Below are positions 282 through 34,813 of a DNA stretch of 64,000 nt, piece by piece. Position 1 is the first letter of the stretch; every line of letters begins with the position of its first letter. Location of the stretch: the NCBI GenBank assembly GCA_050084985.1, contig JBITNC010000001.1, positions 12,152,001 through 12,216,000 on the forward strand. The letters run 5' to 3'. The notes below the pieces were generated by a model, which was given only the letters and a program-made list of their open reading frames with translations, had not been told where the DNA came from and searched no databases. A program made the position numbers and the translations under genes. The stretch comes from Nageia nagi. Its lineage: Eukaryota; Plantae; Pinophyta.

Positions 282-2115
282 TGTGACACTGAGAGGGGGG
301 TGAATTAGTGTGTCTAAAACCTAAATGCAAATTTTTTACTTTTGAAACCAAGGTAATGCAAAACTGAAATCAAATGAGCAAGCACATGAAAAACAACACA
401 CAACGCAAGATGTAATGAGGTTCACCAATTTGGCTACATCCTTGGAAATGACTACTTGGACTCCAATCCTAATCCAACTATAAAAATATTACAATATTTT
501 GTTGCACCCATTGTAAAGAATAGCATCAACTACTCTATCATTATGCAACACCAATTACAAGGAGCACCGATCCTCTCACTAAGCACCCACTTGATGAACT
601 CAAATAAAGAAGATAAATGATTGATTACAATTCACACAAGATCTTGAATGATCTAGCTCAAAAACATAGCCTCTTCATCTACTCACTCTTTAATCATTTC
701 TATTCATTTTTAAAAACTCCACCACCAAATTTGTATCTTATACTATTCCATTCTACACACCTATTAGCTAAAAATGCCCCAAAATGGATAAAGAAGTTGT
801 TGCTAAAATACTAGAAGGATTGCTGTTACTCAAACCAAGAAAACATCTTTAATTCTGATTCAAAACTTTTATTAATTCTTACACATTTATAGAACTCTCA
901 ACATTTGTAGAATTATAAAGAAATCATTCCTTGTAAACACATTCATTACTCACATATACTTCACACACTACTCAAAATAATACTACACTGCCAACACACA
1001 AATTGAGGAAAATCAAAATATGACCAAACTAGTTCATGAAAATACATTGATTGGATCCAAAACATGTGTTCCAATTCCATTTGGCATGAAATGGTATTAG
1101 GAGTTTTGCATAAGTGTCGAATGACCTCTAATAACTTGTATTTGTTTTAGATATTCTCAATAGAAAATAGTTTTCAAAAGAGACAATATCATAAAAACTC
1201 TCCAATCTAAAAAATGGGAGTGTTATTTCTTTTCACAAGAAATAAAATATATTCTCAAAAAATTATTCACCCAACAATTAAACTTAGTCCAAAAGTATTC
1301 AGCCACATGTCACTTGGAGAGAGAAAATAATTACACACAAGGATATCTCGAAGAATTTGCCAAGTGTTATAACTAGACTAGATGCATTTCATCAAACATT
1401 TTACAAGTTTTTTCAAACACCATAGCAAGCATTTCATCAAACATTTCACTGCCAAAAGTGGTCTCAACAATTAGCAAAAATTATGCCTTTCATTTCGTCA
1501 AGCACATACTAGGCATCCTTGTTCACTGACTTCTAAACCTTGGATTGAGATGAACCAAAAATTAAATTTGTGAGATTTTTTGTGTTGATTACAAATATAC
1601 AACCAAAAATCAAATATCTAAAATCAAACTCATGAAATTGCTTTTTTTCTTTGCTATCCCAAAAAGTGCACCAAATTGCAAAAAAGTTACTAAGTGGCAT
1701 TTTGTAACTTGTACCATTTCTTCCTTGGTTTCCACCTTGATGAAAAATTTGGATCACATATTTTTGGTATATAGTACTATATGTGTTCTAAATTTCAGCC
1801 TCTGATTCATCACCATTGGCTTGCAATTTGATTTGCATGAAGCTAATTTCACCCAGATTTTTGACTTCTCCAAAATCCATAAGAATGCTCTAAAATGTAG
1901 CAACATGAAATTTGACCATTCCAATTTACGTTTTGGCCCCCTTAACAGCTTTTGGTAACTAATGACAACTTTTGGTCCCTTTATTGTTTTTATGTCCAAC
2001 AACTTTACAAATATTATCAACATCATTCCTATGATATGTGTAACCATGGAAACCTTATGCAAAATAATCTCATCATGTTGATAATAATGATAACATTGCT
2101 GCATCATACTCAACA
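282..2115 (-). repeat. 3' LTR (~1.83 kb) of the copia element
   Basis: On the minus strand it starts TGTTG right after the PPT AAAGGGGGAGAT and ends ...ATTCACCCCCCCTCTCAGTGTCACA, a SIRE/Maximus-type LTR terminus. Confidence 0.8.
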
Positions 2116-2128
2116 ATCTCCCCCTTTG
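2116..2128 (-). promoter_or_regulatory. Polypurine tract of the copia element (extra PPT-like copies at ~2166-2177 and ~2299-2310)
   Basis: Plus-strand atctccccctttg abuts the LTR start. Confidence 0.8.
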
Positions 2129-2330
2129 GAATTGTTGGCAACACACACAAAAGCTTATTACTCTTCTCTCCCTTTGAAAACAAATACAAAGGGGTGACTT
2201 GGACTCTTGTTGAGTCCATACACAAAATATTTAGGTGCAAATCAATATATAAGAGAAAATAATTATACAGGGGCCAAAAGATGAAAAAGTACAAAATTAC
2301 TCCCCATGAGATTGTGTGCCCAAAAGCTAG

Positions 2331-3432
2331 TCAATGCCTAGGCAATGTCACCACTCCCAATCTCTTTTGTTGGTACTCAAAATTTCCTTGGGTAATGGTT
2401 TAGTAAAGATATGTGCTACTTGCTCTGATGTGTGAACAAATTCCAACTTTACCTCTCCTTAATGCAACCTTTTTCTTCAAAAAATGGTACCAAATGGTAA
2501 TGTATTTCATTCTTGAATGGATGATCGAATTCTTAGAAATATTGATTGCACTTGTGTTATAACACATAACTAAGATGGGCATAGTGATCATTCATCAATT
2601 ATTTCTTACACAAAACATATGTACAATATGATGTTGTTGCTATGTACTTTGCTTTTGTTATGGATAATAATATCGATTCCTATTTCTTACTATGCCAACC
2701 AACAAGATTGTTACCTAAGTAAAATGCACCACAACTAGTGTTCTTCCTATCATCTACACACCCTGTCCAGTCTACATCTAAGAAAGTAATGAGTGTGAAA
2801 TCCTTTCCCTTGGAATACCATAGATCATATTCCATTGTACCTTTGAGGTATCAAAAAATCTACTTTACTGTGGTCACATGTATCTCCTTTGGATTAGCTT
2901 GCAATTGTGCAACCATGCACAACGCTTGAAGTATGTTAGGTATGATAGTTTTTACATACAATATGCTCCTAATCATTGACCTATACATAGTATGATCCAC
3001 TAATGGGGACTTATCATCCTTACTAAGCTTGCAACCTATCATCATAGGAGTGCTCACAAGCTTGCAATCCTCTATAGTGAACTTTTTTAGCATCTCCTTT
3101 ACATACTTGATTTGTGAAATAAAAATACCATTCTTCAACTGATTAACTTCTAAACCAAGAAAATATAAAAGTTCACCTATCATTGACATCTTAAACTCTA
3201 TTTGCATTTGGTTAGCAAAGTCTTTGCATATTTCATCCTTGCTACCTCCAAAAATAATATCATCAACATAAACAACAATGATAACTTGATGATTATTTAC
3301 ATATTTAATGTAGAGATTACTATACACCATACTTTTTTTGAGACCCTGCTAATGAAGATATGCATAAAGCCTAGAGTACCATGCTTGGGGGGCTTATTTT
3401 AAATCATAAAGTGCCTTTTTCAGTTTGCACAC
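2331..3432 (-). pseudogene. Copia RT C-terminal half and RNase H, decayed
   Basis: VCKLKKALY.LK.AP, YVDDIIFGG, YRSMIRSIL, SAINISKN.I.HSR.KYI; many stops and frameshifts. Confidence 0.92.
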
Positions 3433-4551
3433 TATTGGGGGTTTTTTCTTTCCTACCGCTGCAAGTTGGTAAGTGGTATCGTAGGGCTTAGTGGAAAGAT
3501 TCCAACACTTGAGTCTTAGGGCATTACCCCTATCCACTATGAGGACTATTTACCTCAAAGGTTAGAAAGTGAAGGGTGCATAGGCTAACTCAAGTGGTTT
3601 GGTAGAGATGTTTTAAGCTATTATTAACTCAAAATATAATTTTGTTAATCAAGGACTTCAAGGGTCCTTAATCCAAGTAAGATTATTTCTAGGAAGAAAA
3701 TAAAAATAAAATGTTTGTTGCAAAAGATGTGTATGGAAATAGAAAAAGAAATGAAAAGGTTATGAATAGATGGTGATATGTGAGTGGGACTCTAGGGCAA
3801 TGTTTTCACTAACTTGTGTAGATTTTGGAGACTAAACTTGCGTGGGTTTGGTCTAGGTTCGATGCATTCCTAATCCAACTTGAAGGATAACAACATGAAT
3901 GTCATGATAAGGGGAGTTTGAAGTTGAAACAATGGAAAGGCAAGATAGGTCATAGGTAGAACTTAATGATAGAATAAAATTCCTAGGTTAAACAACATAT
4001 GTGAGTTATCCTAGAAGACACTAATCCAAAGTGCAAACTATGGAACATTACAACTATACACCACTTGGAATATTTTATAAGATTTACAAGAACTCTTTTG
4101 TCCACCTTTTAGAAGATTTACAAAATGAACCAAAAATTCAAGATAGCATGGAGAAATAACACATAATCACATCCATAGCCTCAAATAAAAACATTTTAAC
4201 TTCAATCACTTGAGATTTATATCACAATTATGAAAAAAGAGAAACTTGGAAGTTTGGAAAAATAGTGTAAGTAGCCCAATTTTGCACAATATGTCTAATC
4301 CCCTACAAATGATCCAAAATGGGCTATATATAGTTTTAGAGCAACCTTAAGTGTCACCCTAACCCTAATTGCAACTTACAAGAAAAAAAATATGGTCCAA
4401 TCAAAATACACCATATGGTGTTACAAGATATCTTCCAAGTTTGTGGGAGCAAATCCTCATCCATCACAAATATGGAAATTATTAACAAATAAATTAAAGT
4501 TTGTAACATAACTATTAAATATAATAAAATATAATATAGTAAATATTGTGA

Positions 4552-7500
4552 CTAGGTGTTTGGTGGGCCTAACGTGTCTACACTCCCCTCAAAGTCATCA
4601 TCTAGGAATTTGGCTGTGAGCTCCAATCCATGTAGCATCTTTGATAACCTAGGCCTATTCTCAATCATGTAGTGCTCCACCTTGTCCATGATCCTCAACA
4701 TGTCCTTCTCCCATGCATGAGCTTTGAGAAAATGTTTCAAGTGAATACCAGTATGGAATATTTTCATATCTTCAATAATAATCAAACTATGAAAGAAGTG
4801 CCTCACTTCTGCCACCACTAGGTCCTTTTCTCAAATGCCTACATCATCATCAAGGAACTTTACCTAGAACTCCATTTCCTCATGATAAGTGTTTACTTTA
4901 TCATTGAGCTTTTGTACATCCTTTTGCACCTCTTAGAACCAAGTGGCTATCTAATTGACCACACCCAAATAGAACCAATATTCTTCATAGAACTTCATGT
5001 CTTATGGCTTATGATTCTATGTCATCTCAAACTACATGATGATATGCTGCCTAAAATCTAGGATTTTGAGAAAACTAGTTTTCTCCATAATGATATCTTT
5101 GAGCTTTTGCTCCTTGAATGATACCCTCTCTAGTGCTCCAATAAATCATTGAACTATTGCCAAAACCTCATCTATGTGCTTTTGTTTTACCACAAGCATA
5201 CCCTCCTTAAGTGGATTAATCTTTTCAAGTTCTTTGGTGGGTACCTTAGCTGACTTTGATTCTTTTGTCAACTTCTTCAGTGCAGTTAACTCCTTAAGAC
5301 CCTTAATCTCCTTATATTTCATCATACTATATTTGGTGATGGCCTCTATATTGGATATGATTGCATTTTTATAACCAACCAAACTAATTGAACCTATGTT
5401 AATGATTTAGTTAATCTACCTAAGGTCTTTAAGCCATTGTGGGTTCTCCTTATCAGCTACAATAGTCTTAATGTGTATTACATTATCAGCCAAGTGGACA
5501 TACATCTAGGATTTTTTCTAGATGGGTGGAGTTTCTCCTACTTGGTAATCCTTTTCCCCTGCTCCAAATTCTTCTTTGATGTTCATATTGAACACATCAA
5601 GGCACTCCTCATTGATGACACCCCACTCATTCCTAGGTGATGGCTAATAAGTATCCACCATGGCCTCCTAATTGGTAATAGTGTTCCTCTTTGTTCTCTT
5701 TGAGGGTTTCTCCTCTTATTATTCATCATGCTGATCAATTGAAGCTCTTATGGCTTGTGACTATGGAGTCCTCTTCAATTAAGCCCTCCTATGTACTATC
5801 TCTGATACTGGCTCTCTACTTATCTCTATAGATGGCCTTGACGTTGTTTTCCTACAAGCCTCCTTTAAATCTCCATAGACACATCATGTTAGTACACACT
5901 AGGGATCTCCTCATCTTGGAACATATTATACTCTTGTTCATCCTTTGATACTCCAATATCTCCTCCCTCTTAGTTTTCATTAGGCCTATAAGATGAACTA
6001 AAGGCTGCTAATCTAGATGGTGGTACAATAGGTGAAGTTGTAATTATGGTGGCTCTAAGTGGTTTAGGTGGTGGACAAGGATCTTTATGTCTATTTTGCA
6101 CACATCTTACTACCTTACCCATGGCCACATGCTCTATTTCCCTTGCATCATGATCATCCATGGTGGCTTGCACTTGTATAACTTGTTCAACTAGGTTATT
6201 ACCATGCATGGTTGCATACTACCCAACAAGTGTCTTATTTACTAGAGAAGATTGGGTGACCTTGGAAGTAGAATCTTGAATTCTTCTTCCTTTTTTATAC
6301 AATAATCTCTTGCTAATTATGGCTTCCATAGGGTGTTTCTCATCACTTACATTTTTTTGTACTCTTTCTCTTATCCTCTTTATCTCTACCTCATTATTGA
6401 TGTTTTGAAAAGGTTCCTCATCTACAAGTGGCTTATGTTCATAGGGTTTCTTCCTTTCCTTCATGAAGAATGAGTGAAACCTATGGTATAAATCATAGTG
6501 ATTAGTAGCAAGCATATTTTTGAAGTTGAACTTGGCTAATTCTTCTTTCATAGCATCCACATCTATCTAGAACTTACACTGATATTCCCATAATGATCAA
6601 TATATTTGATGTAGGTAGTTTCTTTTGCCATACCTATTTATGTAAAAAGGCCAATTACCTCATCATATCCATTAGTATAATCCTATTATTCATGAACCTT
6701 GGCAATTGATAAAGCTATACAACTAATCCATGTATAAAAATATAAGAAAAGCATTGGCGATGGAGGAAGAAGTTGCCATGCTTCTTGAAAACATCTTGGG
6801 TGGAATTGGAGAATCATGTAACTGCAATTTCTCCCTTAAGCTCCTTATATATCTCATATGACCATCCATCATTTTCAATTATGAAACTATCCCATATTCT
6901 CTCTAACTTCCATTTGGGATAGCACTTCCAAATAGAGTAAGTTCCTCTTTCATTCCAAGTTGTCTCACCCTATGTTGTAGTCTTGTACCTACCGTGGAGC
7001 AACATGTATACTAGGTATGAATTGAGGTAGAATGTATGGGTTATATCAATGGATGATAATTGATTAGCTATTTAGTTATTCAACACCTTGCTCCATTAGA
7101 TCCTTCTCCCTCTAGTAATCTCAAGAAAGAACCCAAAGAACTCCTTATAGAATTTTGAATTGTTTTCCTTCCTAAAAACTTTGGATAATAGGAGAATCAT
7201 TAACTCAACTATTGGGTAGAATTTGGAATGAGGATCATTGATGAGTGCATTTCCCTTCAACTCATGATGTTCTTCCAACATCCAAATCTTAATAGCAATA
7301 TATTCTCTAGGAGTCTCTTGGTAGCATATGAGTGACCTAGCATTGCTATATTCATATTCAACCTTGGAAGTTCATTGAAATACTACATTAATAGCTTTAG
7401 GGTGAAGGTGCATAATGATGTCTCATTTAATGTCTTGAACGATTCTCTCTCCCTTCTTCCAATGGTGACTAAATTCCATGCATAACTCATTGAATGGGAC

Positions 7501-7776
7501 TATGAATGGGTTTAATGTACAAGTGGAGAGCCTAGAGAAGAAGACAATATCCTACTTTAGGTTGATGAAAGGAAGCCCACCAATGCTCTCCCTCATTTGC
7601 ATGGGGTCAACATTTTTCCATTCTATTTCTTCAATAGTTGTAAAACCATTCCTTGAGAAAATGACCCCTTAGGGAAGGCCTTATTGTGTCTCACCAATGG
7701 AGATGATGTAATCCTATTTCAATTGCTCAAGATCCCTAGCAAAGTTAGGAGTTGAATTACCCTTAGAGGGTGTCAT
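4552..7776 (-). pseudogene. Decayed ~1,070-codon TE-associated ORF of unknown function
   Basis: Minus-strand ORF-track pieces 7096-7281, 6219-6560, 5970-6209, 5146-5382 and 4552-4818 join into one reading from ATG 7776 (MTPSKGNSTPNF...LLLSKVFRKE...FYLNSYLVYMLLH...HGNFFLHRQCFSYIFIHG..LYQLPRF...), interrupted by scattered stops. Confidence 0.7.
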
Positions 7777-8380
7777 GGTGTTTTCAATTGCAACATGGCT
7801 CTCCAAGGATGCTACATAGGTTTCCAAGTGAAAATGATCCCCACATGATGGTATCTAGCCTCTTAATTATTTATGCAAGCCTGAGGATGCATAAATGAAG
7901 ATGTTTGGATGCAAAAATATATAATTTCCTACTATTTTGGTGCAAGGGTAGAAGAGGACCAAGTTTTGAATTTGGGAAAATGAGGTCCCAAAGCTTGTAT
8001 TTATAGCTATTTTATCTTTCACCTTGCCATAATCATCTCGGGTTTCTATCAAAACTCATCATATTCCTTCATCTAGTTGACCTCAAGATATCTTCCAATC
8101 TAGAAACTCATGCATTGACTCTTATGCCTAGACATTGGGGTCTAGAAGGTCATCCAAGCTTGGTACATGGAAAAAGAAACAAGAGATAAAAAGTGACTTT
8201 TTTAAACTATTTAGTAGCCCTAGGAGGGAGTATGCTTCCAACATTGGGTATATTATTCATGTGCTTGCTTTCTTTAATCTTCCAACTCACTCATTAACCT
8301 AATTTTTCTTGATTTTTGGTCTTCCAACCAATTGAATTTGTCAATTTTGATGCTTCATTTCAAACTGGGCAACCTAGGAC

Positions 8381-9121
8381 CTTGGTGCATGCTTTCAAAA
8401 GTCAATATTGTGACTTTTTAATTCATGCACCAACCTTACCTACCCCTCCAACTTGGTTGTATAGTTCAAAAAGACAACATTTTATCTTTTTGAAACATGC
8501 ATCAACCTCCAGTTGATCTATTTTCCCATATTTGATCTTCAAGTAAATTTTCATGTTTCTCAAATCCTAGAAGCTTCCTAGGCTTGGTGCATGCCTTAAA
8601 AGTTAATAATTTATCTTTTTATATCATGTGCTTGCCCCTTAAGTATGCTTGAGTTGATTTTGAGTTCCCCAAGCCCATGACTTGTCTAAATTTTCACTTC
8701 TACTCGAATTGGGAGCCCTTTCAATCTTGGTGCATGGTTTGAAAAGATAAGATTTTATCTTTTAGAGGTATACACCAGCCTCCTAGGTGAATTAGGTTCT
8801 TTTTTGGTATTAAACCTTGCTTAATTTATCATCTTGGCCAAATCACATGGTTCAAAAAGATAAGATTTTATCTTATTGAAGCATGCACCAACCTTTTGGT
8901 GTCTTTGCCTTAGGATTTTTACACCTTCTTCTAGTCTAGTATGCTTCTTATATCTGGCATATGCCTAGGAAATTCAAATTTTTATCTCTTGGAAATATGC
9001 ACTTAACTTGCAAGTGCTTAGTTTCCATCTTGAAGCCCCATTTCTTGCTTGGACATCCTTTGGGACCAATCACATGCCTCAAAAAGATAAAAATATGACA
9101 TTTTGAGGCATGTGCCAAACC
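8381..9121. repeat. Array of seven ~55-bp imperfect palindromes with variable spacers
   Basis: Units start at about 8381, 8452, 8583, 8726, 8839, 8953 and 9066. Approximate consensus CTTGGTGCATGGTTCAAAAAGATAAGATTTTATCTTTTTGAAGCATGCACCAACC. Confidence 0.85.
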
Positions 9122-9423
9122 TTAGAGATGTCTAGTTTAACTTAATTAAGATCTTACTTAACTTGGACTCCCTAGTTCTCCTAAGATCAACTTTTACCCT
9201 TGTTAGACTTAGCCATTTTTAAGTAATTTGCAATTTCTATTTTTATGAGACTAACTCTAACAAGGAAAGAAGCTTGAACTATAAGGGGTTTTCCATGAAT
9301 TTGGGTCTAGGTGACACAACTTGGGGGAGTGAAGATGATGACAAAATGAAGTATATACAAAGGTGTGTTTGAGGGTCCCCAAAATTATAGTATTTTGGGG
9401 CATGTTGTATTTTAGTTATAACA

Positions 9424-12400
9424 CACATAAAATTTGGGTTCTCACTTATCTAAAATCTATCCAATTGCTCAATGTATACTTTCTCCTCAAGCTTTCCATT
9501 TAAAAATGTTGATTTTACATCCATATGATAAACCTTGAAGTTCTTGTACATAGCCAAAGTAAGAAACATGTGAATAGCCTCTAATCTACCCATAAGAGCA
9601 AAGGTTTCTTCAAAATAAATACCTTCAACATGAGGATACCCTTTGTAAACCAACCTTTCTTTATTTCTTATTACTTTCCCATATTCATTAAGTTTGTTGT
9701 GAAAAGCCCACTTGGTGCCAATCATATTTTTGTTCTTGGACCTTGGTAACAACTCCCAAGTCTGATTCTTTTCAATTTGGTATAACTCCTCATCCATTGC
9801 CTTGATCCAACTCTCATATTGACTTGCCTTTGTAACATTCTTTAGTTATATACTTGAAAGAAGGGAATATGTTCTTATTGTTCTTCTCCTTATCTAAATT
9901 CCAGTATCTGGATCTCTAATTATTTTTTCGCTTGGATGATCCTTTTCCCATTTACCTATTTTGTGTTTCTAGTTTCCCTCCATTTCTAAATCAATGTGTG
10001 AGTCATTAGAACCACTCTTTGGTTTCTTTTTTGGTTGTTTCTCTACCTTATCTACCTTGATGTAATCTTGATAAACCAAAAAAATTTCATCATTGCCTTT
10101 TGGAGGTATTCACATCTCATCAATCTTAACATCTACAATCTCAACAATTTTCTTGATTATTTTGTTGTAACACTTGTAAGCCTTGATTTTTATTGAGTAA
10201 CCAAGGAATACACCTTCATATGCTCTATCATCAAACTTGCCAAGATTTTATTTCATCCTCTTGATGTATCACTTACTCCCAAAGACTTTGAAGTATCTTC
10301 TTGATGCCTTTTTTCTGAACCATAACTCATAAGGTTTCCTATTCTCATGGGTCCTCAACATACACTTGTTTTAAATATAAACCATTATGTAGACTATTTA
10401 TTTCCAAAACCTATTAGCTATTTTGCTTTTTATCAACATTGTTTATGTCGTTTCTTGAACTGACCTATTCTTTCTTTCTACCATACCATTTTGTTGAGGT
10501 GTCATTACTGTAGAAAATTATCTCCTAATACCATACTTGTGATAAAACTCATTGAAATAATCTCACCTCCTCTATCTGATCTCAAACATTTGATCCACCT
10601 TCCAATTTGATTTTCTATTTGATTCTTGAAGGTCTCAAATTTTTCAAGTGCTTATGACTTGTGCTTCAAAAACAATATCCATGTCATCCTAAAATAGTCA
10701 TCTATGCATAACATAAAGTACATATCCCTATTTATACTTTACATCCTCATAGGACCACATAAATCAGTATGAACAAGCTCTAGGTGTTTGCAAGAATAAT
10801 ATTGCTTTGTGTTGAAAGTGGATCTAGTGAGGTTACCATTTTGACATGAAGAATAAAGACTATTTGGTGGTTTCCTAATACTTGGAGTATCTTGAATTGG
10901 CCCCTTAGAATATATTTTGACTAAGTTATCAAAGCTAATGTGTCCAAGCCTCTTGTGCCAATGCCAATATTTATCCTCCCTTCTAACAAAGCATGATCCC
11001 TCTAAAGTCTCTATTAGTGTATACACATTTTCAAAATTCCTTGTGCCAATTGCTACCAATTTACCATTATCTTCTTGTCTAATTTTGCATCTTCACCTTT
11101 TAAAAATCATGTTATGACCTATATCATAATTCTTACTTACACTTAACAAGTTATATTTTAGACCAATCATAAATAAAACCTCTTCTAATCTGATTTTACC
11201 ATCACTTATCTTCACTATCCCTTTACCAACTATCTTTGCTCCATCATTATTCCCAAATTTGACTGAACCTCCTTCATATTGTTGCAACTTTCCAAATTTT
11301 TGTTTATCATCTATCATATGACTTGAACATCCACTATTTACCAGCCACGAAGTTGTTTTATTCTATGCTTTAAGAGCTATTTGTACTATCAAGGATTCTT
11401 TTTCTTATTTTGACTTTTTCTTCTCTTTCCATTCCTTCTTGATACTTATCTTGATTTCCTATATTATCTCTTCCTATTTGGTTTATTGTACCTATCTCTT
11501 TGGAATCTTTCTATTTTGTTTCATGCCCTATGACTAAAAAGATCTTTGTTGAAATTGATTGGAAGAGAATATACTCTTGCAGTTTCTTGCAATGTGACCA
11601 TAGTTGTGATAGTTATAACATTCTATATCATAATCCATCAATGGTGCAAATATGTTTCTACTTGAGAAGTTTCTTGGACTTATATTATATTTGCACTAAG
11701 AGATTCTATATCCATACCCATTGCACTTAAAATAATAACTAGAAAAGGATTGAGTGAACCTGGGTTGTGGGCTTTACTACGTTATAGCAGGTACTAAAAA
11801 TCTTCTTCTATTTTGATGTGCTACATGTCTGAATCCATCATTGTCCATATTTCTATCATTTCTAGTAGTATTATTTTGCCTTGCATAATATGGTTTTGCT
11901 TGATTGATTGGTTTCTTTTCTTCCTTGATTTCTATTTTTTTATCTATATATTTGGAGGTGTTTTCTTCTTCAAAACCTAGACCAAATTTAATATTTAGTG
12001 ATCTTTGGCTCTTTAGCATTTCATCTAACTTTAAAGATCCTCTCTCAAGTTTATGATACTCACTAATCTTATGACTCATCTCTTCTAGATGAATACCCAA
12101 CTTTGTAATCTTTGCTTCTAATTTGTTGCACTACTCAACTTTGGTAGTGAGTTGTTATTCAAGATCCTTAGTTATTTTTTGCATTTCTTCTACTTGTACT
12201 TTTAAGCTTATGATGATTTCATTTGCATCATCAAGTTTTTGAGAAGTTTTCTTATGCCTCTTCCTTTCTATCTCTAATTCTTCTAGAGCTGCAATTAGTT
12301 ATCTTTCCAGATTGACTTCTGCTTCAATTTCTTCTTCCAATTTTTGTTTCATTTTTGGTTTTTCCTCTTCAAATGCCATGAACAGAGCTTCATCAAACTC

Positions 12401-12657
12401 TTCTTTTGAGTCTTCATTTGAATTGGCTTTTGATTAACTAATATTCATGGAAATAAAGCTTTTCTTCTTGAAATTACCTTTTATGAAATTCAATTTTATC
12501 TTCCAGTCACTTCTCTCTCTATGCAAACTTTCATCATCTTGGTTCTTTCCTTTATGTAGACATTTCTCTATAAAATGCCCTACATCTCCATAATTGAAAT
12601 ATTTAAAAGGCAATTTCCTTTTTCTTTGTGTAGACATTTCTCTACAAAATGCCCTAA
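9424..12657 (-). pseudogene. Copia gag-protease-integrase-RT N-terminal region, decayed
   Basis: MDEELYQIEKNQTWEL..IGTKW, MDVKSTFLNG, WHKRLGHISF, VHTDLCGPM, VKFGNN..KIVGKG, and a CCHC knuckle. Confidence 0.92.
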
Positions 12658-14813
12658 TTCCCACAACCATGGTCACCAAGGATCTTCTCCCACCTTGGCT
12701 AAGTTTCTATGAAATTAAAGTGAATTATGACCCAAAAGTGGATGGCATTTTGAAGAACATGAAACAATAGCTTAAAAGCAATAAGTGGTCCATAGAGAAA
12801 ATAGTAGTTTTCAATCAATACAGGATTGAATCTAGGAATTAGTTTGCACCATTGGAATTAGATATGGATGATTTATTTATGAAAATGTGGCATCTAGAGC
12901 ATCCTAATAATGTTGATTCTTTAGATGAAGAATCTTCAAATGAAGAAGGAAAAACTAGAAAAGAGGATCAAGCCCAAGTATTGGAAGAAAATGTTGTAGA
13001 AAACTCTCCATAAAAGGCTAAGAAAGTATATTCTTCAAAGAGAAAGGCTCAACCTAGCCCTCAAAGATTGCAACCATAGAAGCATGTCAAATAAGCCACT
13101 CCTTGTTTAGGTATGCACTCTCATCACTATACTTCTTCTACTTCAATTTCTAAATCAATCCTAGTTGTGTCTCCTTCATCAATTGCATCAGTAATATTAA
13201 TGCCAACTCCTTTGCCCATTTTCATACCTCTAGTCCCTCTATTTACATATGTGTTAACCACACCAAAAATAGTCATGTCTCAATCACTTCCACCTCTACT
13301 CTCTACCTTAGCTACACAAACTATCACCCCCATCACCCAATTTCCCTTGACATCAACAAACCCACTTTCACCAGTAAACCTAGTCATAAATGTTAGCCTA
13401 GGCCTTGCCCAAGCAAGCCCTTTGACATCGGCCAAGCAAATCATGTTAGTACCAATGCAAGACTTGAGTCCTAGTTCATCATTTATCACTATTTTTGAGT
13501 ATAAAGTGTCCATCTATGGTATAATGCAATAGTACCAATAGATGAAGGCCAACCAAGAGGCTTGGATGGATAAGTAGCTGAAGAAGATTCCTATTCCAAG
13601 AAATCTAGTAAGGCTCTAGAGTTTCCTAGACTCCAAGAGCAAGGTCTTGTAGATGATAGTTGCCCATGAATCTCAAGAAGGTCCTAGGGACCTCATAGCC
13701 ATGAATACAAGCATCAAGATAGACTTGGCCAATGTGCCTAGGTGGGATAAGAATGAGTTATTGCACACTACAATTAACTTGAATATTTTTGAGGCCACCA
13801 AGCTAGAAGCTAAGTATAATAAGGTGCTCAAGTCCAATGAGTCACTTAAGAAGCAATTAGGCTTCAAAATTCTAAGGTATAAGATGTGAACAATTAAATT
13901 TATGGGTTGAAGAAAGCTTTGGCCAATGATCCTATAGCTAACACATTGGTAAAGAAGAATGTTATGCTTGCTGAAAAGGAGGTATAACTGGGTAAGAAGG
14001 AAGCTACCATTATGGCAAAAGACCAAGAGCTAGCGAATAAAGATACTAAAATTACATTAAAGGATGGAACCATTAGTAGTATGAATGTTAATTTGGCACA
14101 TCGACAATAGCTAGCCCATACAAATAAAGTAGATAAGGCATTTTTACTAAAGGTAAAAAAAATTCTAGAATTCAATCACTCCAGACCTAAAAATGGTAAT
14201 ACAAGTTCGAAATCATGTGAAGATTTGCTTCAAAGGGTTAAATAAGTTTAGTGCAAAGGTGCTTAAGAAGAAAGCTAACTATGATTTGCTAATAGATGAT
14301 GACAAGAAGGCAATTGAAAAAATGAGCAAAGTCTCCCATGAATAGTTAAAGGCTTTGAATCTAGGGAGTAGAATGGAGATATTAACAATTGATAAATCAC
14401 CCTATGTAAGGGAAAGGAGTCTGTGATAGTATAAAAGAAGCCTACTCAAATGGCAAAGCAAGATTGATTCTTTGAAAGGAGAACTATAAGACATAGTATC
14501 TTTGGGGATACCAATTTTGTGGAAGGCAAATAAAGAACCCATCCCAAATATAGAATTTTTAAGCAAAATACAAGAGGCTATGATGGATAGTTTAGATGTC
14601 AATAGTTTAAAAACTTCATTCAATGAGAAAAGTATACTACAATTCTTTGAGTACTATGAAAAGATAAAAGTTAATCTATAGCAATTCCTCCAAACTCACA
14701 AGCAAATTTCCTATGATATCTCTAATTTAATGGCTTTGGCTAAGTTTCAATTGAAGAATCTATCTAATGTCCAAGAGAATTAGCATAAAGTGCAACAGTT
14801 AATTAGTAGTTAA
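12658..14813 (+). pseudogene. Decayed TE accessory ORF (acidic/basic, S/T/P-rich, coiled-coil and C-terminal domains)
   Basis: Pieces 13113-13532 and 13653-13889 plus the readable tail DIVSLGIPILWKANKEPIPNIEFLSKIQE...LKNLSNVQEN. Confidence 0.6.
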
Positions 14814-16536: not shown

Positions 16537-17688
16537 GTAGCAAATAATAGGAATTAAATAATGAAAACTACACATCAAATCCAATGTCTAAGAACATAGA
16601 GATAAATGGAAAGATTTCAATAATAGAATGTAATTGTATTGATAAAGAAATGATAAAGAATAATTACAATATTTTTATCAACCTATAGAGTTTTTACTAG
16701 GATTATCTCCTATGGGATTATTTTGGATGGAGCTAGGGTCTCACCAATCCTAGAAGTAGTAAGGAAATATGATGTCTCATTTGCACTAACTATGATGGAA
16801 CCAATAATGTTCCTCTCAAAATGGCTAGAGTAAGTTCAAAGGTAGCCTCCTCTCCTCTCAAGACCTCAAAATTAGGTTTCCCCATAAGTGGCTAAAATAG
16901 AGTCTCCTATCAATCCAAAATAAATGGTTAATAATCACATTTAACATATCTCATAATGGTTATGAGTTCTCCTTTTATAGGTGAGGGTCATCATCCTATA
17001 ATATTACATTGAGATGATCCAATAGTGGAGAGATGTGATTCGTATGGTCATGTATGCAACATCCAAGATGGGATGCCTTGGGATAAGTGAAATCACATCC
17101 AAGGGTTAGGAATACCAATATTCAATAGGGGGTAATAACAAAGCACCTCATGATCAGTGCCATTGATCCATGTGCTTAGGAGGTACAATGTGGGATGTTG
17201 GGATCCTCACATACCCAATGTCCATGCTCTAGGATCATCTACTTGCTTCGATATTACCAATGCCTAGTTTGAAGTGTCAGGTCCATCCTTAGAGCTTCAA
17301 ATGATCTTGTAGTCGATACAATCACCTAGGGGGATGTTCTACCTCAAAGAGAGAAGCAATAATGAATAGAGATACATTTAATACTAATATTACAATAATC
17401 AAGGCTAAAATATGCAACACCTAATTTAATTAGACTAATATTGCATTCACAATTATAATTAGCTTGGTATAGTAAATACAAAATTTATTAGTATCTTAAA
17501 ATAACTAAATCAAAATAAATAAATAAATAAAAGGAACATTTATTCCATAATTAGAGCTTTATCAAGTTGCTAAGTGGAATTTATATCATTTTGGCCAAAT
17601 TATACAAAAATAGCCTAAAACACTCCTAAATTAATGTTCCATTTATTAGAGGTGAAATGGAGAAAATACCTAAAAAATAGGGACATCA
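16537..17688 (-). repeat. Solo/partial LTR, inverted relative to 18473-19911
   Basis: Reverse-complement similarity to 18473-19911 over about 1 kb (e.g. tactaggattatctcctatgggattatttt vs aaaataatcctataggagataatcctagta); ends ...agggacatca. Confidence 0.75.
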
Positions 17689-18472: not shown

Positions 18473-19911
18473 TAATGTCCCTAATTTTTAAGGTTTCATT
18501 CATTTTTGGTTTCAAGGAGATTTCATCTTATACAAGCTATAAATGAACATTTCAACAACACAAATGGAAAGAGGACCTCATGCCAATGATTTTGACAAGT
18601 TACATGACCTATTTTGGTCAAGAAATGAAGAAGTTGTGGTATTTTAAAGTTCACCCAAAAAGCTAGCATGATCATATCACATGTGCACATGGGAATCCAA
18701 AATTCTCGTTCTAGTTTACTCCTGGAAAGGCTACATCCTTCCTTTAAGCATGTGTAATGATTACTTAGTTAATTGAGGAGTGTTTCATATATATTTAAGA
18801 TCATTTCATTATAGTAAATCCTTTATTATATGTTCCACTTGGATATTATTTAATTTCTCCAATTATGAGATGTTGGACCTACATTAGTATGATAGGAGTA
18901 ATTTAGTTAATTGATAGAATATTGATAATGTTGTATTTGAAATACCAAGGTAATTATAATTGTAAATGCAATATTAGTCTCATTAAATAAGGAATTAAAT
19001 TTTTTAGCCTTAATAATTATAATATTGGCATTAAATGTATCTCTAGTTATTAGTGCTCCCCTCTCTGAGGTAGAGCATCCCCCTAAGTGATTACATTGAC
19101 TACAAGGATATTTTGAGATCCAAGGAATAAACTAACACTTTAAACTAGGCATTGGTAATTTTGAGGCAAGGATACAACCCTAGAGAATGGACATTGGGCA
19201 TGGGAGCATCCCAAGATTCCATGTTAGTCTTCCTAGGTACATTGATCAATCACGTTGATCATAAGGTGCTTCATTATCACCTCCTCTAGGATGTTGGCTT
19301 TCTTGGCCCTTAGATCTAATTTCACTTATCCCAAGGCTCCCTGTATTGAATGTTGCATACATAAGCACACAAATCACATCTCTCCACTATTTAATCACCC
19401 TAATGCAAGATTATAAGATGATCACCCTCACCTATAAAAGGAGTACTCATAGTCATTATGAGATATGCTAAATTTGATTATAAACCTTTTATTTTAGATT
19501 GAGTGGAGACTCTATCTTTGCCACTTGTAGGGTGACCTAAATTTTAGATATTGAGGAGAGAAGAGGATACCTTTGAATTAAATTGAGCCATCTTGAGAGG
19601 AATGTTGTTTGTTCCATCAAAATTGCTATAGAAGAGACTTGGTCTTGCCTTGAACTACTTCTAGGATAGGTGATACCCTGGAGACATCAAAAATAATCCT
19701 ATAGGAGATAATCCTAGTAGAAACTTTGTAGGTTAACAAAAATATTATAATTATAATTTATCATTTCTTATCAATACAATTACTTTTTATTATCAAAATT
19801 TTGCTATGTATATCTCTATGCTTAGATGTTAGATTTGAAGTGTACTTTGCATTATTGAATTCATGTTATAGCTTCCTATTTGCAATGTTGGATTTCTAGG
19901 GATATTTTACA
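18473..19911 (+). repeat. Solo LTR of the same family
   Basis: Starts taatgtccct (decayed TG), has TATA-like cctataaaag at ~19431, ends gggatattttaca. Confidence 0.75.
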
Positions 19912-20123: not shown

Positions 20124-20758
20124 TGTTTTATTTAAATAATGCATAAATAGTAAATCGATGCATTATTTATCTACAATATGTTATTGAAACATATATGAGA
20201 AATGTGGCATCAAATGAATAATGATAAATAATATACATTCATCATATTCATATAAACATGAAATAATAGATACCATTCATCAACCATCATACGACATTCA
20301 TAAATATGCTCAATACAATGGCCTAAAGATGCTACATCCCTAACTATGTACATTAAGTAGATTGATGAAGAAAATAAAAAATATACAAAAGCAACATGAA
20401 GGGTTTAATATATCTATGCAAAGGTGATGTTACAAAGTACCATTGTAGGTAGGATAGAGTGATACTGTATTTGTTGAAGTCTCTCTTAGTATTTTTGATG
20501 CCCTCACATGGTGTCTCTTACATTGCCTTTGATGTGTCTTTATAGCAACATCATGGTCTTCTCTGGTTCTTATGGTCATTGCATAATACATAGCCTAAGA
20601 TATCTTTCTTGATATTTGACACCTTTTATATTGTATAATGATCCATTACACTTATTACATTACTTTGGGTATATTTTTACTCCCTTTTTACAATAAATAT
20701 CATTGATGTTATAAAATGAATTATTTAATAAATAATAATTCATTTTTAGGTATCTACA
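20124..20758 (-). repeat. 3' LTR (~635 bp)
   Basis: Aligns along its length with 25011-25648; purine tract on the minus strand at ~20760-20770. Confidence 0.85.
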
Positions 20759-23700
20759 TTTTTCCCTTATTTGTAGGTGTGATTGAATCAATGAAATTAC
20801 ATGTCTAAGTAATAAGTACATAAGGAACTTTTGAGAAATTTGAACTCTTTGCTACATTACTACTTGATGATGTTGGTGATGGTGAAGGTCCTTTCCTACC
20901 CCCTTTTGGGTTGGTTTCCCCAAGAGTGGTCCTTGAGTGGTGCAACCAAGAAAAAATATAAAGAAATATGTCACTTTATTTCTTTTGATATCTCTTCCCT
21001 ATTAGGAACTCTACTAACAGGTAATCTTATGGTTCCACATCCAATCTCTAAAATGAAATATGTTGATTTTCCCCTTGCACTATTCAACCATAGATCTGTC
21101 CATTCTATTGTGTTTGGTACTTAGGAAATTTATTCTCTCACATACATACCTTGAAATAAAATAGGTCTCTTTATTTATGATGATATACCATTGATGTGTA
21201 TACTGCTAATGGTGTAGGAATAGTGAGCATGCCTCTGATGATGTGGGTTTCTTTGTATTCTTTTCTATTCTTCATGATGTAGATACCTACAAAAAGGTGT
21301 TATCTATACCCTGTATGAAAATTATTTGGATACATAATGAGTTACATCATCCATTAATGATGACACAATGTTAGTAATCTACTTACATATGCATCATCAA
21401 TTTACATTTTAAGTGAGTGAACTCTCACTAGCCATATCATTGGCCATCAGCGATCATACATTTTATGTCTATGAATTGAAAACATTATGCTTTGTATGGT
21501 TCAAAACAAAAACCATATGGATGCATAGCAAGTTGCATCATGCATTGGAGATGAGCCAATATCAACATCTTTCTTATGACTAAATCGTTAATTTATCTTT
21601 TAAGTGAGTGAAGTCTCACTAGCTATATCATCAATTTATACTATCATCAAATATTTATATATATTTTGTTTTGAAATACATGCAATTAGTGATGCATAAA
21701 TAGTAATTGACATCATTAGCTACATGAAAATAGTACAATACAATGAAAAATTGAAAATGAAACTCTATGATACAAGTATCTTGCATAAGATTTTTGATGT
21801 TTTGCAAGGCACATGGTCGCTATCTTTATACAAAGAAGCATTTGAGGTGGGTGTCATTGAAGGTATTTGGTTCTTCTTAGCCATCCATGTAAAAGAGTTT
21901 GTAGGCTCCTGATCCTGTTGCTTCTAGTACAACAAATGGACCAAGCCAAAGCCTTATTTCCCTACTTGGCTTTGTGATAAGAATAATGTTAGCCATCTAC
22001 TTAGAATAATCAATTAGTTTAATAAACCCAACATTCAAATAGTTTTCTTTATCTTTCTTAACTAACAAAGCTTTTGAAGGATGCATTTTTCTTGGCTTTT
22101 GCTTGATTGGCCTAGCCTCCTTTTTAAGTGGTAAATTATGCATCACAAAGGAAGGATCTAAAATAGACATATCATTATAAGACCAAGCAAAAATTTTTGT
22201 AATGTTGAATGAATTTATTTTTGTACCTTTCCTATTGTGGTGTAGGTAGGGTTGCTCCAACTTGAACTAATATTTGCTCAATTATAGTCCCAATATTGAA
22301 ATTCATCAATTCTTCCATTGGAAAGGTAAGCTCATCTTTCTTTTGCAATAAAGAAGGAAATTCCTCTAATCCTTGTATGTCATATGTATCATTAGTCTTT
22401 AGTTGAACCTAAAACACTTCTAAACAAGATGAAGAGAATTGCAAATTTGATTTCAAACATGATAACATACCATGCATAATGAATGTTGTTAACAGCCTAA
22501 AATATGAAGAATCTAACCTTGCGCAAAGAACAAAATATGATCATCACAACTAGGGAATAACAAATCCAAGGTTAATTAGTGGTGTCTAAAGACTCCATTT
22601 TAGTTGTGGTGCATTCCTTGTACTTGCCTACCTAATCCTCCCCCTTTGTACTTGTAATTTTTAATAATATATTTATGAATAAAAGGATACTACATGAGTT
22701 TACCTATTTCAATAGTCATTTGATCTTCCATTGAATTATCAAAGTTGGGAAATATAGATGTGTTGAAGTAAGATCCTTCCCCATATTCATTTTTCCATGC
22801 CATTAATGGCCTTCTAGCACTAAAGCACACTACTGACAGCCTTTTAGTAGAAAAGCACACTATTGATGGCCCTCCATAGATAAATTTTTGGGTTGTTCCA
22901 AATATTTTATGGATGTAAATAAATCCACATTCTCAATTATGTATATACCCATTTTAGTTTCTATAATTTAAGTCTATTTTTTTGTATTTTCCCCCAATGC
23001 ATTCTATTCCAAGGGCTCAATCTCATATCTTGGATAACTCATTGTGAATTCTTAAAAATTTGCTACATTACAGAAAGCATATGGCTCTAGATTACCAACA
23101 ACTATATGAAACTCACCTTGATATTCAAATTTTAATCTATCATGTACTGTATATGGGATTGCATCCATATCATGAAGATAAGGCCTTCCCAATAATAAAT
23201 CATTAGATAATTTGGAATCAACAACTTGAAACTTAGCTACAATTTTCCTTACTCTTGTACTTACCATAATTGTGGCTATCCAAACTAATTTTTTAGATGA
23301 GCTATCATATGCCCTAATCCTAAATCTATCTTCTTCTAATGGAAAGATTTCTACATCTTTTTCTTTGAGTTGAATCAAAAACATGTGGGAACGTACATAA
23401 ATAGATGATATTTTATCTACCAATGTTCATTTTATTTCTCGTCCATCAATCATAGGTGTAATATATAAAGATAAACACTCATCAAGAAACTCCTTATTAA
23501 GCTTTTAAAATTTGTAAAAAGAGATAGCATCATATTCCTTAATAGCTCTAGGCTTTTTAGAGAACATAGCAGCAAACATATTTTTAGGAACTATCTCCTT
23601 TTTGAACAAAGCATATAAGATATCCCTATGTGTTCTACATGTGTATATAAGATCATATAAACTAATATTTGTAGGAGTTGTTTTTAATTGGCTAATCATA

Positions 23701-24994
23701 CTATATGTCTTTGGATCATGAGGGATACTTATTCTGTAGTGATCAGATTGGAAGCATGCCTTGGACACCCTCTTCTTAAACCAACACAACTTTATTTAAC
23801 CACTGAAATTGTATTCATCGTATATCCTTGATTTTCATCTATTTGATCAATTTGATACTTTCCTTTAGTAATAAGATCCAAAGTAGCTTCCTCTAATTCT
23901 TTACAAAAATTTGTAGCATGACCCTTCCTTTGATGAAATGTGTAATAAGAATCTGATTTTCCTGTAGGAACATTGTTATCTTGTGCTAAATTTTCCAATG
24001 GCTGCAATAATCCCTTTTTCATTAGATACCTCATGTCTTTTGTAGTGGCAAATCTTTGCAACTTTGGTGGAGAAGCAGTTTCTATCAGCCATATGTACTA
24101 TTTTTTCTTCCTTTTTAGCATATATATTCTTATTCTCCTTATGCAAAGGAGTAGGTGCATACTTGAGTTCCCCCAACTCAAGTAAAACTTTTTCTTTTTC
24201 AATAATTCTTGTATCAATACTCTTAATCCAATATTCTTATTACTAGGAGCATGCAAATTCATAATTAGCACAATAGAATCTCTAAATATAGCATAAATTT
24301 CACTTTCATCTAATTTTCTTCAAATGGATTTCCATATCTTTTTGAATAGTGGAATGTACTTTTCTAGGGTATTATTACCCCTTTGTCTCATTGCATATAA
24401 CTATGTAATGGTACTTTGATTTTTGATGTTGTGTTTGTATTATCCCATGAATAATTTAACCAATGACTTGAAAGAATCAATTGAACGACCAGCAAAATTA
24501 TAGAACCATTAACTAGCATCACCTTTCATATTCCTTGGGAAGAACTTTATCATCAACTTCTCCTCTAACTCTAAGTTCAACAAGCACTCCTCTTGAAAGC
24601 TGATAAGATGCTATTTTGGGTCTTATTCACCACTAAACATCTCAAACTTGGGGGCCTTGTGCTTGGGTGGTAGGGAAAAATTATGAATCTCCTCAAAAAA
24701 GGGTGAGATGAATACACCATCATACTCCTCTTCACTTTTATGTGATCTTATGTTATTCTCAAGGTTGGCTAGTCATGTAGCTATGATGGGATTTGACATT
24801 GCTGATGAGCTACCCTAACTATTGAATGATTGCATTTTCTTTTCCATAGTTTCTATTCTACTAAGAACTTACTTCATAAATTGTTCTATTTTTACATCAT
24901 TAATGGCCCAAAATAGCTAAAAATACCATTAAAGGTACATATTTGTTATAGAATTATCATAAGATCTTGCTCGTAGGGCAAGATAAATCAAATA

Positions 24995-25007
24995 GTTGGG
25001 TTCACCA
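24995..25007 (-). promoter_or_regulatory. Primer binding site, tRNA-Trp type
   Basis: Minus strand TGGTGAACCCAAC lies 3 nt from the 5' LTR; the complement of the plant tRNA-Trp 3' end is TGGTGAACCCGACG. Confidence 0.75.
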
Positions 25008-25010
25008 AAA

Positions 25011-25648
25011 TGTAGACCTCAAATAATGCATAAATGGTAAATCAATGCACTATTTATCTACAGTAATATTATTTAAGCATATATGAGAAATATGACATCA
25101 AATAAATAATGATAAATAATGTACCTTCATTATAGTCACATAAATATGAAATAACAGAGATCATTCATCAACCATAACATGATATTCATAAATATGCATA
25201 AAACTAATGACCTAAAGATACCATGTTGAGAGCCGGATGGAGTAAATAGATCGATGAATGAAATAAAGATATATGAAAGCAACATGAAAGGTTTAACAAA
25301 TCTATGTAGAGGTGGTGTTACAAAATACCATTGTATGTAGGATAGAGTGATCTTGCATTTGTTGAAGTCTCTCTTAGTATTTCTGAAGCCCCCACATGAT
25401 CTCTCTTATCTTGCCATTGATAGGTCTTTATAGAAGCATCCTAGTCTTCTTTTATTCTTGAGATCATTGCATATTACATAGTTTGATATGTCTTTCTTAA
25501 TATTTGACACCTTTTACATTATGCAATGGTCCATTACATTTATTACATTTCCTTGGGTGTATTTTAACCTATGTTTTTTAAAATATATATCATTTATGCT
25601 ATAAAATGAATTATTTAATAAATAATAATTCATTTTTAGGCATATACA
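25011..25648 (-). repeat. 5' LTR (~638 bp)
   Basis: tgtagac...catataca termini, adjacent to the PBS. Confidence 0.88.
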
Positions 25649-25749
25649 CTTCCTCTTCTAGGGCATGTTTGAGGAGTGATCCCGAAAATGGATCATCATA
25701 ATGAAGCTTTTTTATTTTTAAGTGTAAAGTTTGTACAAAGATTTATATC

Positions 25750-29280: not shown

Positions 29281-29506
29281 ATTTGTATGGAGTTATTTCA
29301 TTAAAATATAAATAATAATTTGTAATTTCAAGGCAAAGTTGGCTATTTATTATTTCAAAATATTAGCAATTTAATAAAAATTTAATTTAAAATTTAAATT
29401 TGTCTTGGCGACTCGGATAAAAAAAAATAGTAATAAAACTTTTTGGTGACATGGTTATTGTTCTAATGAAAGAAAACATTCCCCACTTTGTAGTGAATGT
29501 AGTTTT

Positions 29507-31027
29507 ATGCTAGGAAAAGATTGGAGAAACCCTGCAACTACTATTGTGTGCACGATGCTTGGGCCCCAATACATGGCTATGGGCACGGGGGACCCCTCAG
29601 ACCTCCCACAGAATGCTTCCTTCTGTGATGTTTTACGATCAAGATCATCTGGAGCAGGTTGTGGAACAAACAAGCCAAGATTTCACCGTATAAATATGCC
29701 AAAGTTTGAGCCATGGAAAATTGATTCTGGTTGTCTACATGGTACATTTGAGATCCCTGAAATAACTATTCATAGTGATAGCGTGCATGATGAAATTAGT
29801 TTACTGGAAACTAGAGCATTGATTTGCAAATTTTTGGGCTCCTGCTCTCCCTTAGCAGTGATCAAACACTGGGTTACAAATGCTTGGAAGGTTCAAGGTG
29901 AGATCTGTCTAAGCTTTTACCCGAATGGCTATTTCATTGCCTTATTTGCCATAGAAATAGATAGAGATATGGTCTTTGAAGGTGGCCCATGGTTCAATGG
30001 TAATGCAGGGCTCTTCATGAAGCCCTGAAATATAGGGTTCAAATTGGATAAAGAGTATCCCTCCTCTACTCTTGTTTGGGTACATATCCCAACCCTCCCA
30101 AGGGAACTCTGGAAGGAGGATATATTCATAGCCATTGGTAATGCCATAGGGGCATTCATGGGGGTCTCAGAGAAGACATGGAAACTAGACTCTCTTGGTT
30201 ATGCTCGGATCTGTGTCTACATAAAAACTAATTCTCCCTTGCCAGCCCAAGTTAAGATCAACCTACCCAAGGATGGCCTAACCTACCTCCAGAATATAGA
30301 CTATGAGAACCTCCCCTTCCATTGTCAGATCTACTCAGAATATGGGCATCTAGCCAAAGCTTGTCCCCTAGCACAAAAGGTCAGTAATAGCCTAGAAATT
30401 CCCAATGGAGGCTTCCAAGAACCCAAGTGAAAACACCAAGCACTGAAAAGATCCACCCTTGATAAGGATTCCTGATCCAGCAATCATTTCCAAATACTTC
30501 AAAATGTAAAGGACACCTCCAACCAAGAATCTATAAAAGTTCCAACCCCCCCAAATCTTCAACAAGATCCTCAGAGTAATGAACTGCAATAAGAAATAAC
30601 TACAGAAACTATGAACTCCCCACATGCTAATCCAGTGCAGAGAATTGGTAACATACAAGAGCAAATCTTCTCTTATTCTGATACAGATCTCACCCCCATA
30701 ATGCAACCAAATCAGATAGAAAATGTTCTATAGGAAATGGACATGAATATGGAAGACCTTGTAGGCATGGATCAAGGTATGGAGCTAGCCAAAGTAGCCT
30801 CACCAAATGATAAACCCAAGCATATTCACAGTAGGCAACCATCCATTTCTATCATAAAGCAAACACCATCCTACCTAAAAATTGTAGTAGTTGGTCAAAA
30901 CAAGCTCAAAGGTAGAACATCTAACCAAACTAAGCATTCTCAAGAAGCTATGGCAAGTATAGAAATTGGGAGTCAGACACGATTGGAGGAACTCCTTGCC
31001 TCCAAAAAACACCAGGTTTCCCAATGA
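29507..31027 (+). pseudogene. LINE ORF1 (DUF4283/RRM-like domain and zinc knuckle)
   Basis: LICKFLG...GYFIALF...DRDMVFEGGPWF..; VWVHIPTLP.ELW; YARICV; DYENLPFHC..YSEYGHLAKAC; in-frame stops. Confidence 0.9.
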
Positions 31028-34000: not shown

Positions 34001-34813
34001 GTTAGATATCCAAGATGGAAGAAAGTAATAGGGATCCTCCCTGGACAGGAGGTAGCATCAACTCAGCTTGAATCCATGCTACACAGCCACAAACTCAATC
34101 CAAAAGAGGAGGATAAGCTCATCTGGACACTTACTCCCTCAAGGTCATACACGGTTAAATTAGCCTATAAAGCTTCTCATACTACTGCACACTCCCCTTG
34201 GCCTCCAACAGTTTGGTCCAAAGTGTGGAGAAACAGAGCATGGCCTAAGGCCCAATTTTTTCTATGGACAGCCACTCATGATAAACACCTTGTGGGGGTC
34301 TAGTTGCTCAAACGTGGCTTCTTAGGCACATACAATTGTGTTTTTTGTGGTGAAGCAGAGGAGTCAGGGCCTCACATCCTCTTGCATTGTACCTATGCCA
34401 TGGAAATCTAGTTCAAATTCCTCTACATCTTTGGCTTACAGTGGACTATGCCAAGCAACATAGGGAACCTGCTATTCTCATGGGAATACCCCAAATAGAT
34501 TCAAGTGCCAATGGTAATCTGGAATGCAGCTTCAGTAATGATTTGTTGGAATCTATGGATTGAACAAAATAATCACATTTTTAGAGGTCAACCAAAATCA
34601 GTAGACCAGGTTTGGCATGTTACAGGCAAAAATTTAGCAATGATATGGGCACCCCACATAGTTGTTGATAATGAAACAAGGCAAGAACTATCAAACCTTC
34701 ACCCCTGGGACCACATCCTCTTTGCCTGGCATCTCAAAGTATCAAACACTATCGATGAAGCAACACCAGTTGGATCAGATGACATTACATCTTCTGCTCT
34801 AGCCCATCCATGA
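31024..34813 (+). pseudogene. LINE ORF2 (APE endonuclease, RT, zf-RVT)
   Basis: MIITSWNTRGL; GGDFN; SDHWP; APGPDGF; KLDMKKAFDR; QGDPLSPYLF; QFADDT; C.FCGEAEES..HILLHC; several stops and frameshifts. Confidence 0.95.

Follow-up and report, generated by a model that had tools for sequence, protein, structure and literature searches.

Genes encoded inside a long terminal repeat (LTR) are familiar from retroviruses, where MMTV sag and HIV nef are located in U3. In plant retrotransposons, the sources cited here and below (each drawn on in part) place the accessory genes in the internal region (PMC7264820; PMC6317226; PMC3485330). Ogre, Retand and Athila, with accessory open reading frames (ORFs) of the PMD (PF10536), Transposase_28 (PF04195) and ATHILA (PF03078) families, as well as Grande with its gene23, carry such long genes with their own promoter and nearby repeats, either between pol and the 3' LTR or before gag, and the accessory genes of Ogre and Retand are antisense (PMC6317226; PMC11963269). 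Gypsy elements also encode PMD-A clades (PMC5418596), and ORF0 of Retrosat2 is described as upstream of gag-pol (PMC3485330). In the LTRs of SIRE (Sirevirus), ~7 palindromes precede a conserved TATA box in the upstream half of the LTR, and palindromes are also found upstream of the env-like gene (PMC4728375). Among DNA transposons, the VANDAL Mutator-like elements (MULEs) have VANC genes (DUF1985, DUF287) for anti-silencing proteins. Beside these genes, short motifs are repeated as an array in non-coding DNA, and through them VANC21 counteracts silencing (PMC5735166). Here we analyse a stretch of 64,000 nucleotides (hereafter the window) from the conifer Nageia nagi (GenBank assembly GCA_050084985.1, contig JBITNC010000001.1, positions 12,152,001 to 12,216,000, forward strand), in which positions 3433-9423 correspond to a mobile unit with integrase-type ends, one long gene and an array of palindromes. 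We favour, with modest confidence, the reading of this unit as a solo LTR, left by a retrotransposon whose LTR had absorbed an accessory gene, with the gene lying outside U3.

The unit interrupts a copia reverse transcriptase (RT) gene encoded on the minus strand, and its boundaries and insertion site comprise the following features.

3433..9423, no strand assigned: whole mobile unit, 5,991 bp, both ends common to relatives
3428..3432, plus strand: target-site duplication, left copy, CACAC
9424..9428, plus strand: target-site duplication, right copy, CACAT, one mismatch
2860..3427, minus strand: host copia RT, portion after the insertion
9429..9845, minus strand: host copia RT, portion before the insertion
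3433..3457, minus strand: tail-side terminus, a GGAAAGAAA motif and then a C-rich end
9377..9423, minus strand: palindrome-side terminus, a TGTT start with two stacked short inverted repeats, the outer one decayed in the window

Both boundaries and the CACAC/CACAT duplication had been proposed in the original prediction, and both flanking sequences were found as expected. The duplication measures 5 bp (letters matching 4/5), which is the rule among plant LTR elements (PMC6317226) and falls within the 4-6 bp expected for a solo LTR. Its removal together with the unit restores the host gene, as had also been claimed: the RT reading frame is continuous and consecutive across the site, with Pfam RVT_2 positions 1-100 to the right of the unit and 144-243 to its left, and the empty-site join 3432->9429 is present in contigs from the public run X1. 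Self-BLAST detected no repeat between the 3433 end and the 9423 end, and the reading frames within 3433-9423 gave one gene only and no gag or pol, in agreement with the anticipated absence of a second terminal repeat and of retrotransposon genes. Neither inside nor beside the unit did we find a primer-binding site (PBS), a polypurine tract (PPT), gag or pol, an internal PPT-like motif not being conserved. The ratio of observed to expected CpG in the unit is 0.06, CpG being nearly lost.

Four of 190 candidate stretches from a metagenome scan were confirmed as relatives (labelled L001 to L004), with DNA 64-73% alike and the same layout, whereas the first metagenome scan, three viral scans and one prokaryote genome scan yielded no relatives of the unit. 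Two of these copies begin exactly at the homologue of 9423 (L001:7906 and L002:2849, both starting TGTTGTGACTAA), and a third terminates exactly at the homologue of 3433 (L003:3824, ending CCCAACA). Their flanks are unrelated: five 300-bp flanks compared in 10 pairs gave no score >23. L001, L002 and L003 share the termini that had been proposed for the window: TG...CA ends are common to the family and, as predicted, one of them is decayed in the window, where the tail side ends TA instead of the CAACA found in L003 and in a second L002 unit. In run X1, the unit is matched by 1,716 contigs, which leave none of its 30 depth bins uncovered (depth per bin was not taken as copy number). Seven of these contigs exit the window near 9408, track the unit to the terminal CA and then diverge. 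Their mutual agreement is 0.65, to be compared with 0.67 for unrelated flanks and 0.72 if three share a flank in simulated contigs; at most ~2/7 could have one flank in common. The segment 3433-9423 is a member of a mobile family with fixed ends.

Some other features of the relatives deserve mention. L002:1-2848 belongs to a more distant relative, of which it contains the 3' part (matched by the C-terminal profile at E 1.5e-18) with a CAACA end, such that two related units stand head to tail with 31 bp between them; chance, insertion preference or shared structure are all possible. L001-L003 have an observed/expected CpG of 0.37-0.44 in the unit, compared with 0.06-0.07 for L004 and the window. 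As each of these three units resembles its own flanks in CpG, the difference may reflect host or age. L001:4050-4750, ~3 kb from the unit end, corresponds to DNA photolyase exons (FAD_binding_7, E 1.7e-16).

TG...CA termini combined with a 5-bp duplication are the signature of an integrase, and a solo LTR is the ordinary route to such ends when PBS and PPT are missing. The solo LTRs of plant elements with long LTRs (>3.2 kb in Retrosat2, up to ~5 kb in others) resemble the unit in their TG...CA ends, 5-bp duplication and lack of PBS and PPT, but the unit is longer (~6 kb), contains a selected gene and has no parent found. In the solo-LTR reading, the copia RT would have received a full-length element, and recombination between the two 6-kb LTRs of this element would have left one. 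Since no copy was seen beside a primer site, a purine tract or gag-pol, this LTR status is something that we infer, and several observations weigh against it. The original prediction had envisaged both further copies with the same ends and pairs of copies around PBS-gag-pol-PPT; the former exist, but none of the four further junctions in L001-L003 is an inner one, as neither a TGG within 5 nt nor a clear purine tract accompanies any of them (0/4), whichever direction is considered. One junction has 12/15 purines, but it leads into an RVT_1 fragment, identified with Pfam in the L003 flank, whose motifs we take to be of the non-LTR type. The L001 flank had no Pfam match in its nearest 1 kb, and tblastn with six pol pieces from the window gave no match over the flanks covered, 7.9 kb for L001 and 2.8 kb for L002. 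Conifers are reported to contain one solo LTR per 3.7-7.5 full elements (PMC5751070). At this ratio, four junctions would all be outer ones with a probability of 0.08-0.10; at three solos per full element the figure is 0.41. Finally, non-chromovirus LTRs reach ~5 kb (PMC6317226), compared with the 6 kb of the unit.

The alternative that best survives these observations, although we hold it to be unlikely, is that no two-LTR parent exists, the unit being a self-contained non-autonomous element that moves by cut-and-paste, through an integrase-like enzyme encoded elsewhere that would bind its terminal inverted repeats and palindromes. Such an element would be expected to show what we see at the junctions, all six of which in assembled DNA (two in the window, four in L001-L003) are outer ones, and at the X1 loose end, with its ~2/7 contigs at most sharing a flank. 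The asymmetric ends with stacked inverted repeats and the head-to-tail L002 units also fit, and VANC genes do reside on DNA transposons (PMC5735166). However, no transposase was seen, four junctions are few (a family rich in solo LTRs yields the same result at 0.4-0.7), and the X1 loose-end evidence comes from the best 6 of 379 rows. A further point against this alternative is that the combination of TG...CA ends and a 5-bp duplication is not known to us from any plant DNA transposon. If the parent indeed does not exist, the unit would represent an undescribed kind of mobile element.

The position of the gene relative to U3 depends on the internal organization of the unit, which contains the following features.

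4552..7776, minus strand: decayed long gene, ~1,075 codons
6661..7776, minus strand: conserved N-terminal domain, predicted fold weakly VANC21-like (PDB 9lnk)
7998..8005, minus strand: canonical TATAAATA box, 229 bp before the ATG, likely the gene promoter
8372..9126, no strand assigned: palindrome array, 7 units with core AAAGAYA-N6-TRTCTTT and outer CATG arms, at the same place in L001 and L002
4324..4368, plus strand: second promoter-like site, a TATA box (4325-4332) and then AACCCTAA (4361-4368), of putative function
4583..4592, minus strand: purine-tract-like motif TTTGAGGGGAG directly before TGTAGA, at the gene end; judged coincidental, without conservation in L003

The gene had been described as an ORF of ~3.2 kb, but in the window it is not open: it contains 33 stop codons (11, 4 and 18 across three frame segments), and its frame changes at least three times. 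In L003 it forms one frame across 912 codons with 6 stops. The dN/dS values were 0.06-0.28 in 10 of 16 pairs, the remaining 6 being saturated at synonymous sites. The gene evolved under purifying selection, and the window copy is dead. A search over 1.84 billion representatives retrieved homologues in 68 clusters, mostly fragments; one of these 68 hits (P0031, a repetitive bacterial-type protein) was removed as spurious before alignment. The 20 homologues that were looked up comprised a hypothetical protein of Taxus chinensis (the only plant name), one spurious repetitive protein and 18 without a name, which points to a gymnosperm as the likely host. Word-based searches, which constitute weak evidence, found no longer protein relatives, and one further search added two fragments. 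No Pfam family passed the cut-off for the gene (including DUF1985, DUF287, PMD, Transposase_28, Transposase_32 and ATHILA), and neither a PDB sequence search nor Rfam gave anything significant. The protein has no transmembrane stretch (top 19-residue hydropathy of 1.3 across six segments). In this it differs from the env-like gene of SIRE, which is moreover internal and followed by several purine tracts. The gene also differs from the accessory ORFs of Ogre, Retand, Athila and Grande in its position between integrase-type ends and its lack of any Pfam match, although, like them, it is a long accessory gene that has a promoter of its own and repeats close by; its position is likewise unlike that of the Retrosat2 ORF0.

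The palindrome array announced in the original prediction was confirmed. Seven palindromic units span 8397-9112, and a pattern scan gave 7 matches in 8150-9200 versus 12 in the other 63 kb (P ~2e-9); the arrays of L001 and L002 contain 6 and 8 core palindromes. Between the palindromes and the ATG, the 8005-7998 box, absent like the 4583-4592 motif from the original prediction, recurs in L001 and, in the form TATAAAAA, in L002, and its distance from the palindrome-side end is maintained (1,418, 1,421 and 1,331 bp in the window and relatives). This conserved upstream TATA box supports the idea, already put forward for this locus, that a complete expression cassette resides inside the unit. Near the other end, the 4324-4333 box is symmetric in the window. 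Its counterparts in L003 and the second L002 unit are not, and there TATAAATAG is found on the strand that does not encode the gene. AACCCTAA follows downstream of the box in the window and L003, and the spacing from box to end is conserved (900, 874 and 938 bp in the window and relatives). Since the tail box faces the gene in the relatives and the other box lies upstream of the gene, the two promoters are predicted to converge. The gene, which would be read from the palindrome-side promoter and hence downstream of a promoter, would not be in U3 whichever of the two is the LTR promoter: it would lie in R/U5 in sense orientation, or be antisense. By analogy, the first option matches the layout of SIRE LTRs and the second the accessory genes of Ogre and Retand.

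This organization bears directly on the original prediction of a solo LTR read in the gene direction, in which U3 would contain the gene, as in MMTV sag, and 4324-4333 would be the LTR TATA box on the gene strand. The symmetry of the box in the window would allow it, a TATTTATA sequence might still act as a promoter, and the order of palindromes, gene, box and C-rich CA end fits. Nevertheless, we consider this version improbable: in 2/2 relatives TATAAATAG is read on the opposite strand (then AACCCTAA in L003), so the tail TATA box faces the gene, and a conserved TATA box stands between the palindromes and the gene. MMTV sag and HIV nef would be comparable to our gene in lying inside a terminal repeat, if the unit is an LTR, but they are in U3, against which the promoter layout of the unit argues, and the gene is far longer. 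In addition, a SIRE layout, with palindromes and then TATA, would place U3 at 9423-8000, before the gene (PMC4728375).

A 14-mer, TTGGAAGATATCTT, occurs at 4421-4434 and 8085-8098, 93-102 bp from each TATA box, and is absent from the relatives. We rejected the possibility that the two promoter regions are ancient duplicates, whose support was borderline, the 14-mer not being kept in L001, L002 or L003. Candidate primer sites were likewise discarded: TGGTATC at 7849 has no match in L001 and L002, and TGGTATC at 3474 falls in a gap in both relatives. An 11-nt word common to the L003 flank and the L003 unit is a same-strand repeat, and we do not interpret it as a sign of self-priming.

A further alternative would turn 3433-4582 into an ordinary 1.15-kb LTR after its purine tract, and the rest into the pol-to-3' LTR spacer of a 5'-truncated element of Retand or SIRE type. 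It takes its appeal from TTTGAGGGGAG immediately before TGTAGA at the gene end, and such spacers are known to contain accessory genes and repeats (PMC11963269). However, the purine motif is absent from L003, position 4576 is covered by 15 contigs with no loose end there among the rows listed, and 9423 corresponds to a genuine end of both L001 and L002, whose flanks are unrelated. This common end largely refutes the proposal, which we regard as very improbable. Least credible of all is a gene between two short decayed LTRs, or a unit that is a one-off chimera of nested elements: a weak collinear likeness does link 4571-4116 with 8222-7786 (reached by 0, 2 and 3 of 60 shuffles under three scoring schemes), but the shared 14-mer is lost in L001, L002 and L003, BLAST gave no match of the L001 or L002 head to the L003 tail, the same layout recurs in copies 64-73% alike, and no relative displays a gene between two short LTRs, the arrangement that would have contradicted the original prediction.

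Returning to the solo LTR that we favour, the product of its gene provides some clues about a possible function. We obtained two AlphaFold models of the N-terminal domain, one of the distant homologue P0026 (pLDDT 64) and the other of the window's own domain (pLDDT 70). For both, 9lnk (VANC21 bound to DNA) ranked 1 of 48,161 chains (Z 6.3, rmsd 4.6, 216 aligned; Z 4.7, rmsd 4.6, 201 aligned), and the remaining listed structure matches align <80 residues. The two models are not independent, as they have most alignment rows in common. Other results temper this likeness: both Z values fall short of 8 (the level set by the tool), Foldseek returned nothing at E<=0.001 when run against PDB and viral models, the N-terminal domain has no passing Pfam family, and the Atlas matches (DUF1985 0.79, Transposase_32 and ATHILA 0.81) are leads only. 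The PMD domains have been reported to resemble structurally the DUF1985 domain of VANC (bioRxiv 2024.09.27.615353; PMC13547354). Because 9lnk ranked first twice, and given this reported likeness and the presence of PMD-A on Gypsy elements, the modelled domain is likely a distant member of the PMD/DUF1985 fold group, not a VANC. VANC is the top structural match of both models and shares with our gene the neighbourhood of a motif array, but it differs from it in sequence (5-9% identity, Z <8, no DUF1985 match) and the motifs of the unit are dyad palindromes. Moreover, the host element of VANC is a MULE, which the unit is not, with its single gene, 5-bp duplication and absence of transposase; a further difference is the likely gymnosperm host of the unit.

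As a tentative proposal, this PMD/VANC-like domain may bind the palindromes as a dimer and keep the family promoter active against silencing. Any intact copy would then act in trans on other copies of the family. Equally, by analogy with what has been proposed for SIRE, the palindromes may serve a host transcription factor or have a role related to siRNA. A more far-reaching version seems to us quite doubtful. In it, the sequences would form a gymnosperm family of 6-kb units with integrase-type ends, each combining an anti-silencing gene, VANC-like and sequence-specific, with a palindrome array as the operator of that gene, and the family would spread in the absence of any two-LTR parent. Such a portable anti-silencing cassette would have no described counterpart in plants.

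The individual parts (solo LTR, PMD-like accessory gene, palindrome array) are known; what appears new is their union within one pair of integrase ends, of which we found no description. Titles and the starts of abstracts in the literature searched, mostly outside subscription journals, revealed no case of a plant gene inside an LTR or of a giant LTR. The accessory genes of plant retrotransposons, internal according to the parts of the literature cited above, are lost upon LTR recombination. A gene inside an LTR would survive it, such that each solo copy could keep supplying the protein in trans. If the protein binds the adjoining palindromes, a single protein and a short motif would suffice to test what the PMD-like genes of LTR elements do, and anti-silencing of the VANC type would reach beyond eudicot DNA transposons to the retroelements of gymnosperms.

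In the host copia (283-12660 of the window), TGTTG is preceded by a purine tract, AAAGGGGGAGAT, at ~2114-2127, and the LTR end near 283-310 is rich in C, both being traits of SIRE elements; a self-BLAST of the window showed no 5' LTR matching the 283-310 end. Elsewhere in the window, a run of 100 N (63285-63384) marks an assembly gap, and an inverted repeat pair of ~970 bp (16544-17510 and 18901-19869, 80% alike, 1.4 kb apart) is possibly a terminal-inverted-repeat element. A decayed LINE-like element occupies 29450-34303 on the plus strand, with endonuclease- and RT-like frames judged by eye, and 40590-47428 contains repeated, partly tandem fragments resembling pieces of PPR genes. Two decayed gypsy elements (20134-25651 and 35335-38895) have LTRs of ~630 bp with a TGTAGA-like start and related pol pieces.

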